Assembly (NCBI RefSeq): GCF_003334315.1
Contig: NZ_QOWR01000014.1
Length of the DNA stretch: 64,000 bases
From: Escherichia coli
Lineage (GTDB): Bacteria; Pseudomonadota; Gammaproteobacteria; Enterobacterales; Enterobacteriaceae
Direction: 5' to 3' (one strand)
Part shown: positions 47,330 through 47,457 of the stretch, piece after piece
Layout: the number at the start of each line of letters is the position of its first letter
How positions within the stretch are numbered: the first letter of the stretch is position 1
Notes under the pieces: generated by a model
What the model saw: only the letters and a program-made list of their open reading frames with translations
What the model was told of the DNA's origin: nothing
Databases searched by the model: none
Position numbers and translations under genes: made by a program

Positions 47330-47410
47330 GTTCTCAACGGGGTGCCACGCAAACGCGTGCGCTGAGAAAATACCCGTCGAACCTGATCCGGATAACGCCG
47401 GCGAAGGGAT
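47330..47410 (+). ncRNA. TPP (thiamine pyrophosphate) riboswitch aptamer / thi-box in the thiBPQ leader (SroA region)
   Basis: Conserved thi-box elements read directly: ggggtgc...gctgagaaaatacccgtcgaacctgatccggataacgccggcgaaggga, about 50-130 nt upstream of thiB. Confidence 0.85.
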
Positions 47411-47457
47411 TTGAGGCTCCTTCTCAAGTCCTTTGCCACTCTTTTTTGAGGTGCAAA

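Follow-up and report, generated by a model that had tools for sequence, protein, structure and literature searches.

The interval 47330–47457 on the plus strand of the analysed Escherichia coli DNA (hereafter the window, 64,000 nucleotides in full) is, with a probability of about 96%, the 5′ leader of the thiBPQ operon, carrying a TPP riboswitch that switches between an anti-P1 hairpin and a hairpin sequestering the ribosome-binding site. The assignment is carried by the match to the aptamer family, the genomic context, the complementarities within the leader, and the conservation of these complementarities. The element is the known, annotated, and mechanistically dissected E. coli TPP riboswitch preceding thiBPQ, and its identification is correct but ordinary: E. 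coli has three textbook TPP riboswitches, of which this is one, it is annotated automatically by the NCBI pipeline, and it is used by several laboratories as a model of co-transcriptional riboswitch folding. The result therefore matters little for discovery, and the value of the check is that of a positive control, in which a reading of the raw sequence located the element to 2 nt or better at the mapped transcription start and without error at the start codon.

Rfam 15, run at gathering thresholds over the entire window, matched the TPP riboswitch aptamer family (RF00059) at 47328–47427 on the plus strand; the score of 66.1 bits exceeds the gathering score of 54.3 (window-wide E = 8.9e-11, with 4,227 families and 128 kb of sequence). 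The match spans model positions 1–105 of 105 and is not truncated. A permissive scan of 47200–47560 returned the same TPP match (E = 5e-13) and nothing else credible; a MIR8139 match in that scan, at 17.5 bits below its gathering score of 90, was regarded as a chance hit. In the 64-kb window, the Rfam scan detected only this one TPP riboswitch, and the thiC riboswitch is absent from the window. The RF00059 alignment displays all five helices (P1–P5) together with all conserved junction bases; the sole deviation from the family consensus is the missing optional P3a stem, whose place would be after CUGAGA and before the 3′ strand of P2. In the cmscan alignment, whose pairs were verified, P1 is formed by 47332–47337 and 47411–47416, P2 by 47338–47341 and 47343 with 47370 and 47373–47376, P3 by 47344–47350 and 47355–47362 around a loop at 47351–47354, P4 by 47382–47385 and 47404–47407, and P5 by 47388–47391 and 47398–47401, all on the plus strand. 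These helices consist of standard pairs, except for a G-A at the base of P4. The aptamer proper ends at 47416, the end of P1, and the expression platform occupies 47417–47460.

The thi-box core (CUGAGA ... ACCC..GAACCUGAUCCGGAUAACGCCGGCGAAGGGA), which contains the ligand-binding junctions, lies at 47362–47409 on the plus strand; this 48-nt string has one exact copy in the window and was matched by none of 100 dinucleotide-preserving shuffles. The conserved thi-box bases (CUGAGA; ACCC; GAACCUGAUC.GG.UAA..CC.GCG.AGGGA) are all found within it. These bases show little or no variation among 59 related leaders, and in the 59-sequence alignment all but five positions of the core are invariant; the conserved bases contact TPP according to crystal structures of thiM, as cited in PMC10578472. 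A resemblance to the thi-box arising by chance in an ordinary spacer between sgrR and thiB is thus of negligible probability, considering the E-value (9e-11 against 4,227 families) and the shuffles, the lack of variation among 59 leaders drawn from more than 15 genera together with compensatory changes in P3, and the thiamine-transport genes directly downstream. The earlier note had recognized thi-box blocks upstream of thiB, had called the element a TPP riboswitch, and had proposed a covariance-model scan as the check; the blocks are confirmed by the unique 48-nt string, the scan was positive, and the riboswitch is additionally supported by an annotation at identical bases and by the thiB-thiP-thiQ genes that follow it.

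This annotation was obtained from an identical genome. The segment 47150–47650 is 100% identical to E. coli 13C1065T and shares 95–99% identity with the majority of 5,400 complete genomes, and in 13C1065T a feature named 'riboswitch - TPP riboswitch' is given by RefSeq/PGAP at bases mapping to 47328–47427. Of 5,426 complete E. coli genomes, 5,399 contain the 133-nt leader exactly once, in each case with at least 95% identity, and it is annotated as a riboswitch beside thiB in every E. coli record among the matches listed. Upstream of the leader, sgrR ends at 47294 according to PGAP in the identical genome. Downstream, open reading frames and PGAP coding sequences place thiB (tbpA), encoding the periplasmic thiamine-binding protein, at 47458–48441 with a GTG start, thiP at 48417–50027, and thiQ at about 50011–50709, all on the plus strand, with 42 nt between the end of P1 and thiB. 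The 163 nt that separate sgrR from thiB are accounted for by the riboswitch leader.

For the annotation of the window, the start of thiB is fixed at the GTG at 47458. The earlier note had left a choice between this GTG and a nearby in-frame TTG, of which only the former stands. The GUG codon (47458–47460) is the PGAP start and is invariant in all leaders aligned, the Shine-Dalgarno sequence GAGG (47448–47451) is located 6 nt before it, and the K-12 mutation U130A (corresponding to 47459 and changing GUG to GAG) renders a translational fusion barely detectable (PMC11487190). The TTG at 47446 was rejected because it overlaps the Shine-Dalgarno sequence and lacks a separate ribosome-binding site. 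Furthermore, the mutation G121C, which affects a G of the Shine-Dalgarno sequence (47450), decreases expression in K-12 and abolishes control by TPP (PMC11487190).

The operon would be transcribed from a weak promoter abutting the stop codon of sgrR, with a start at about 47330. A probable sigma-70 promoter of thiBPQ and SroA was read by eye at 47295–47323 on the plus strand, comprising a −35 element TTGCTG (47295–47300), which matches the consensus at three of six positions, and, after a spacer of 17 nt, a −10 element TACACT (47318–47323). A consensus scan of 46900–47600 called no promoter, and missed this one because of the low match of its −35 element. Most of the 62 distinct upstream sequences compared from other Enterobacteriaceae retain the −10 element (TACACT or TACAAT; TACAMT), and the placement is, as judged from sequence, probable. 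With 47150–47650 as the query, the match breaks at 47293–47301, close to the stop codon of sgrR, in about 1,050 of 5,400 complete E. coli genomes. In E. coli ETEC4079 (L002:1997-3035), the one genome examined, a segment of approximately 1 kb separates a frameshifted sgrR from the riboswitch and carries espY2, a T3SS effector gene, on the opposite strand. From 47293 onward, starting immediately before the −35 element, ETEC4079 is again homologous to the window, and the thiB promoter consequently appears to be self-contained in 47293–47329.

The transcription start at 47330 (plus strand) corresponds to +1 of Grondin/Lafontaine, whereas +1 of Berman/Lucks corresponds to 47328. The 5′ end of K-12 sroA (75608) aligns to 47330, and in Salmonella 5′ RACE located a start shared by SroA and tbpA 129 nt upstream of the GTG (PMC3511261). 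Positions G35, G121, and U130 of PMC11487190 fall on 47364 (G of CUGAGA), 47450, and 47459 only if +1 is 47330, which likewise indicates a start at about 47330. With +1 at 47328, Berman's P1 (5–9/85–89) and invader (95–99) read UCUCA, UGAGG, and UCUCA, respectively, and the linker is 90–99; the offset of 2 nt between the Berman and Grondin numberings is a matter of convention and not an indel. The interval 47330–47457 given by the earlier note hence extends from the transcription start, which is also the 5′ end of SroA, to the base preceding the GTG of thiB.

Two pairings were found in the expression platform. The linker (47417–47437, plus strand) consists of a variable loop (47417–47421) and a pairing strand (47422–47437; UCUCAAGUCCUUUGCC). 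In the anti-P1 or antisequestering hairpin (ON), supported by folds and conservation, 47400–47416 pairs with 47422–47437 around the loop 47417–47421, giving 16 pairs with one bulge (G47403), of which the 10-bp core is 47407–47416/47422–47431. In the hairpin that sequesters the ribosome-binding site (OFF), which is present in all folds, 47431–47436 pairs with 47453–47458 and 47439–47441 with 47448–47450, so that GAG of the Shine-Dalgarno sequence and the first base of GUG are buried. The two pairings are mutually exclusive, as 47431–47437 is common to both. In the proposed mechanism, without TPP, the linker strand 47422–47437 would invade P1 and pair with the 3′ half of the aptamer (47400–47416), and formation of anti-P1 would leave GAGG (47448–47451) and GUG (47458) open, allowing thiB to be translated. 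With TPP bound, 47400–47416 would be locked in P1 and P4/P5, and the 3′ part of the linker (47431–47436) would be released to pair with 47453–47458, with 47439–47441 pairing with 47448–47450; the buried ribosome-binding site would block 30S binding, and the mRNA level would also be lowered. The choice between ON and OFF would be made during transcription, and the operon, whose products (tbpA-thiP-thiQ) form the thiamine/TPP ABC importer, would be turned down when TPP is plentiful.

The binding of TPP by this allele and the response of gene expression to it, including TPP dependence, control of translation, the kinetic nature of the switching, and the effect on mRNA, are expected by analogy with the K-12 allele, which is essentially identical in sequence. 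The K-12 element, thiB (tbpA)/sroA (b4762) at MG1655 75481–75608 on the minus strand, occupies the same locus with the same flanking sgrR and thiBPQ, and differs from the window over 47280–47475 by three substitutions and no indels. P1, P2, P4, P5, the linker, the sequester stem, the Shine-Dalgarno sequence, and GUG are identical; the P3 loop has AA here (47351–47352) and GU in K-12, and the promoter spacer has A here (47306) and T in K-12. The substitutions spare paired and ligand-contacting positions, and no functional difference would thus be expected. The P3 tetraloop reads AAAC here, GUAC in K-12, and AGAC in ETEC4079, and thus varies neutrally within the species.

In K-12, the mechanism has been examined by reporters, aptamer point mutants, toeprints, and smFRET (PMC10578472, PMC11487190). 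Aptamer point mutants are constitutively ON (PMC10578472), and mutation of G35 (= 47364) abolishes regulation (PMC11487190). Deletion or randomization of linker nucleotides 95–99 locks the switch OFF, weakening of the sequester stem breaks the TPP response, and break-and-rescue mutants of P1 and the linker bias the switch as predicted, with regulation restored by full rescue (PMC10578472). Furthermore, TPP blocks the 30S toeprint on thiB, and TPP sensing is about 5.7-fold faster co-transcriptionally (PMC11487190).

Comparison across Enterobacteriaceae was based on the best 80 of 380 thiB loci, with one genome per species. The leader was located in 77 of the 80, and the 58 leaders with a short P3, together with the window, constitute the 59-sequence alignment. 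In this alignment, the OFF structure is 94.6% paired, as opposed to 27–51% when partners are slid by one to three columns, and the ON structure is 95.4% paired, as opposed to 33–57%. The 16 pairs of anti-P1 are 95.6% paired across genera, and its loop varies freely. Compensatory changes were observed in five of the seven pairs of P3 and at the sequester pair 47441/47448, which changes from C-G to U-A in four distinct sequences with the Shine-Dalgarno sequence AAGG in place of GAGG. All pairs other than those of P3 and 47441/47448 are invariant in the 59 leaders, including P1, P2, P4, and P5, and covariation therefore neither supports nor contradicts these helices; for P1, anti-P1, and most of the sequester stem it is uninformative because the relatives are too close. 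Variation falls in the loops of P3, anti-P1, and the sequester hairpin, whereas the linker and AGGUGCAAAGUG, the strand bearing the Shine-Dalgarno sequence and GUG, are invariant in all 59 leaders. The thiB leaders of Citrobacter, Salmonella, Enterobacter, Klebsiella, and other genera share with the window the aptamer core, P1, the linker CUCAA..UCCUUUGCC, AGGUGCAAAGUG, and the GUG start, and differ from it in the sequence of P3, which co-varies, and, in several genera, in ERIC-like or other insertions of 20–200 nt in the P3 loop, of which the window has none.

The ligand-free minimum-free-energy fold of 47320–47480 combines the sequester hairpin with the 10-bp core of anti-P1 (z = −3.3 against shuffles). 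In folds of successively longer prefixes, anti-P1 forms once 47431 has been transcribed and extends into 47432–47437 between +104 and +125, and these nucleotides pass to the sequester stem as soon as 47458 has been made. Capture of the 5′ strand of the sequester stem by anti-P1 is seen only in the prefixes from +102 to +125. The computed energies are −11.2 kcal/mol for the anti-P1 core, −19.8 kcal/mol for the extended anti-P1, and −10.6 kcal/mol for the sequester hairpin alone; the extended anti-P1 is nearly isoenergetic with the core anti-P1 plus sequester hairpin. In equilibrium ensembles, GAG of the Shine-Dalgarno sequence has an unpaired probability of at most 0.2 with either the aptamer or anti-P1 enforced, and no difference in its accessibility was found between these constrained states. 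As equilibrium folding yields no clean switch, the ON state would have to be kinetic or transient, as is argued in the literature, and the modelled folding is consistent with a transient intermediate and a kinetic decision. Unconstrained folds of long constructs also contain non-native long-range pairs. A second inner register of the sequester hairpin (47438–47440/47450–47452), which would suit genera with CACCC, was rejected for E. coli, where it is worse by 4.8 kcal/mol.

Premature termination or mRNA decay, involving the U-rich 47442–47447, Rho, or RNase E and leaving SroA as its product, has been considered as the main mechanism in place of sequestration, since a transcriptional lacZ fusion in K-12 is repressed 1.6- to 3.9-fold by TPP and this repression partly persists with GUG mutated (PMC11487190), a discrete SroA species of approximately 93 nt exists, and a run of six U is located at 47442–47447. 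However, the U-run lies inside the loop of the sequester hairpin and not after a G+C-rich stem, for which reason its reading as an intrinsic terminator was rejected, and a scan of 46900–47600 identified no terminator-like site on the plus strand. In addition, single-round transcription in vitro yields only the full-length product as TPP rises, and bicyclomycin leaves repression unaltered (PMC10578472). The K-12 studies disagree on regulation at the mRNA level, with PMC11487190 for and PMC10578472 against it; in the former, the mRNA level falls with TPP given an intact Shine-Dalgarno sequence, and this dependence makes the effect look secondary to ribosome binding. Termination or decay is therefore unlikely to be the main mechanism, and control at the mRNA level is best seen as a layer added to translational control, not as its replacement.

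Besides the K-12 element, the closest E. coli systems are the other two TPP riboswitches. The thiM riboswitch belongs to the same aptamer family, also lacks P3a, acts translationally, and is the model system for crystal structures; it follows a like logic, with an anti-P1 strand competing with the strand that sequesters the Shine-Dalgarno sequence, and its secondary structure is described as very similar to that of thiB (PMC11487190). It differs in its operon, which encodes the salvage kinases thiMD, and in its platform sequence. Furthermore, the mRNA-level effect requires 34 codons and Rho in thiM, whereas in thiB it is seen with 12 codons and without effect of bicyclomycin (PMC11487190, PMC10578472). 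The thiC riboswitch likewise senses TPP co-transcriptionally, with an anti-P1 stem whose formation ends the period of sensing, but is larger, and its aptamer domain alone suffices for mRNA-level control (PMC11487190); such control in thiC and lysC is attributed to Rho or RNase E (PMC11487190).

The ncRNA sroA of K-12 MG1655 (b4762; 75516..75608 on the minus strand) aligns to 47330–47422 on the plus strand with two substitutions and no gaps, and SroA in the window would thus be a stable RNA of approximately 93 nt comprising the aptamer plus 6 nt. The correspondence of the element to SroA had been anticipated by the earlier note and is refined here, as the alignment does not extend over the whole leader. 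The transcript, also termed sYJ20, has been detected by Northern blot and 5′ RACE in Salmonella (PMC3511261), where the E. coli SroA transcript is attributed to Vogel et al. (2003). In the mechanism preferred here, SroA would accumulate as a by-product of the riboswitch. An alternative is that the trans-acting small RNA SroA/sYJ20, controlling other genes through base pairing, is the functional product of the interval and that the thi-box resemblance is secondary. In its favor, SroA accumulates as an RNA of approximately 100 nt, it is induced by tigecycline and tetracycline in Salmonella (PMC3511261), and its deletion lowered fitness in mice, as cited in PMC3511261. By contrast, regulation in cis by TPP has been directly demonstrated in K-12 (PMC10578472, PMC11487190), the conservation of 47330–47422 is fully explained by the aptamer, and the invariant platform downstream of the 3′ end of SroA would be left without explanation. 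The Salmonella phenotypes are subtle, the deletion takes out the promoter and leader of thiB as well, no target has been identified, and the riboswitch role is stated not to require Hfq (PMC3511261). A trans-acting product as the principal function is, for these reasons, improbable. The weaker proposal of a dual-function riboswitch and small RNA, in which SroA also acts in trans under antibiotic stress or in host fitness by analogy with Salmonella sYJ20, is equally doubtful, and the conservation of the leader is fully accounted for by its function in cis.

Among the 77 related leaders, 11 (from Citrobacter, Raoultella, Pseudocitrobacter, and others; L006:549-815, L015, L025, L027:435-782, L034, L037:419-761, L050, L053, L059, L077, and L082) have a distance from P1 to CUGAGA of 146–230 nt instead of 30 nt, and their P3 terminal loop contains an ERIC-like repeat of 120–200 nt (GTGAATCCCCAGGAGC...GTGACTGGGGTGAGCG, the core of the ERIC2 primer sequence) that forms a long hairpin extending P3. 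The Rfam TPP model at the gathering threshold misses all five ERIC-bearing leaders scanned (L006, L027, L037, L077, and L011), and standard annotation would therefore not see these riboswitches. In Citrobacter sp. wls619 (L011:652-785), the P3 insert is accompanied by a second, inverted ERIC-like copy of approximately 125 nt (CGCTCACCCCTGTCAC...GCTCCTGGGGAT) located in the loop of the hairpin that sequesters the Shine-Dalgarno sequence, between CCTTTGCCACC and TGAGGTGCAAAGTG, so that both insertions are in loops. The three Klebsiella leaders L064, L070, and L073 carry a different P3 extension of approximately 60 nt. The window contains no copy of the ERIC core, and a literature search on ERIC and riboswitches returned nothing obviously about such an insertion.

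The Rfam scan returned further matches elsewhere in the window. SgrS (45345–45571, minus strand, 228.8 bits), which is oriented divergently to sgrR, and the leader of the leucine operon (39216–39365, plus strand, 145.8 bits) conform to the order leu-setA-sgrS/sgrR-thiBPQ, which is the expected E. coli neighbourhood. A full-length match to PssrA ('plasmid-encoded Shigella sRNA A'; 17625–17714, minus strand, 105.5 bits against a gathering score of 69) is located amid otherwise chromosomal E. coli sequence and may reflect an insertion sequence or other mobile element. Finally, three naRNA4 matches (REP-derived, nucleoid-associated RNA; 11312–11389 and 11429–11505 on the minus strand and 56178–56243 on the plus strand) and one STnc40 match (11909–11978, minus strand) exceed their gathering scores.
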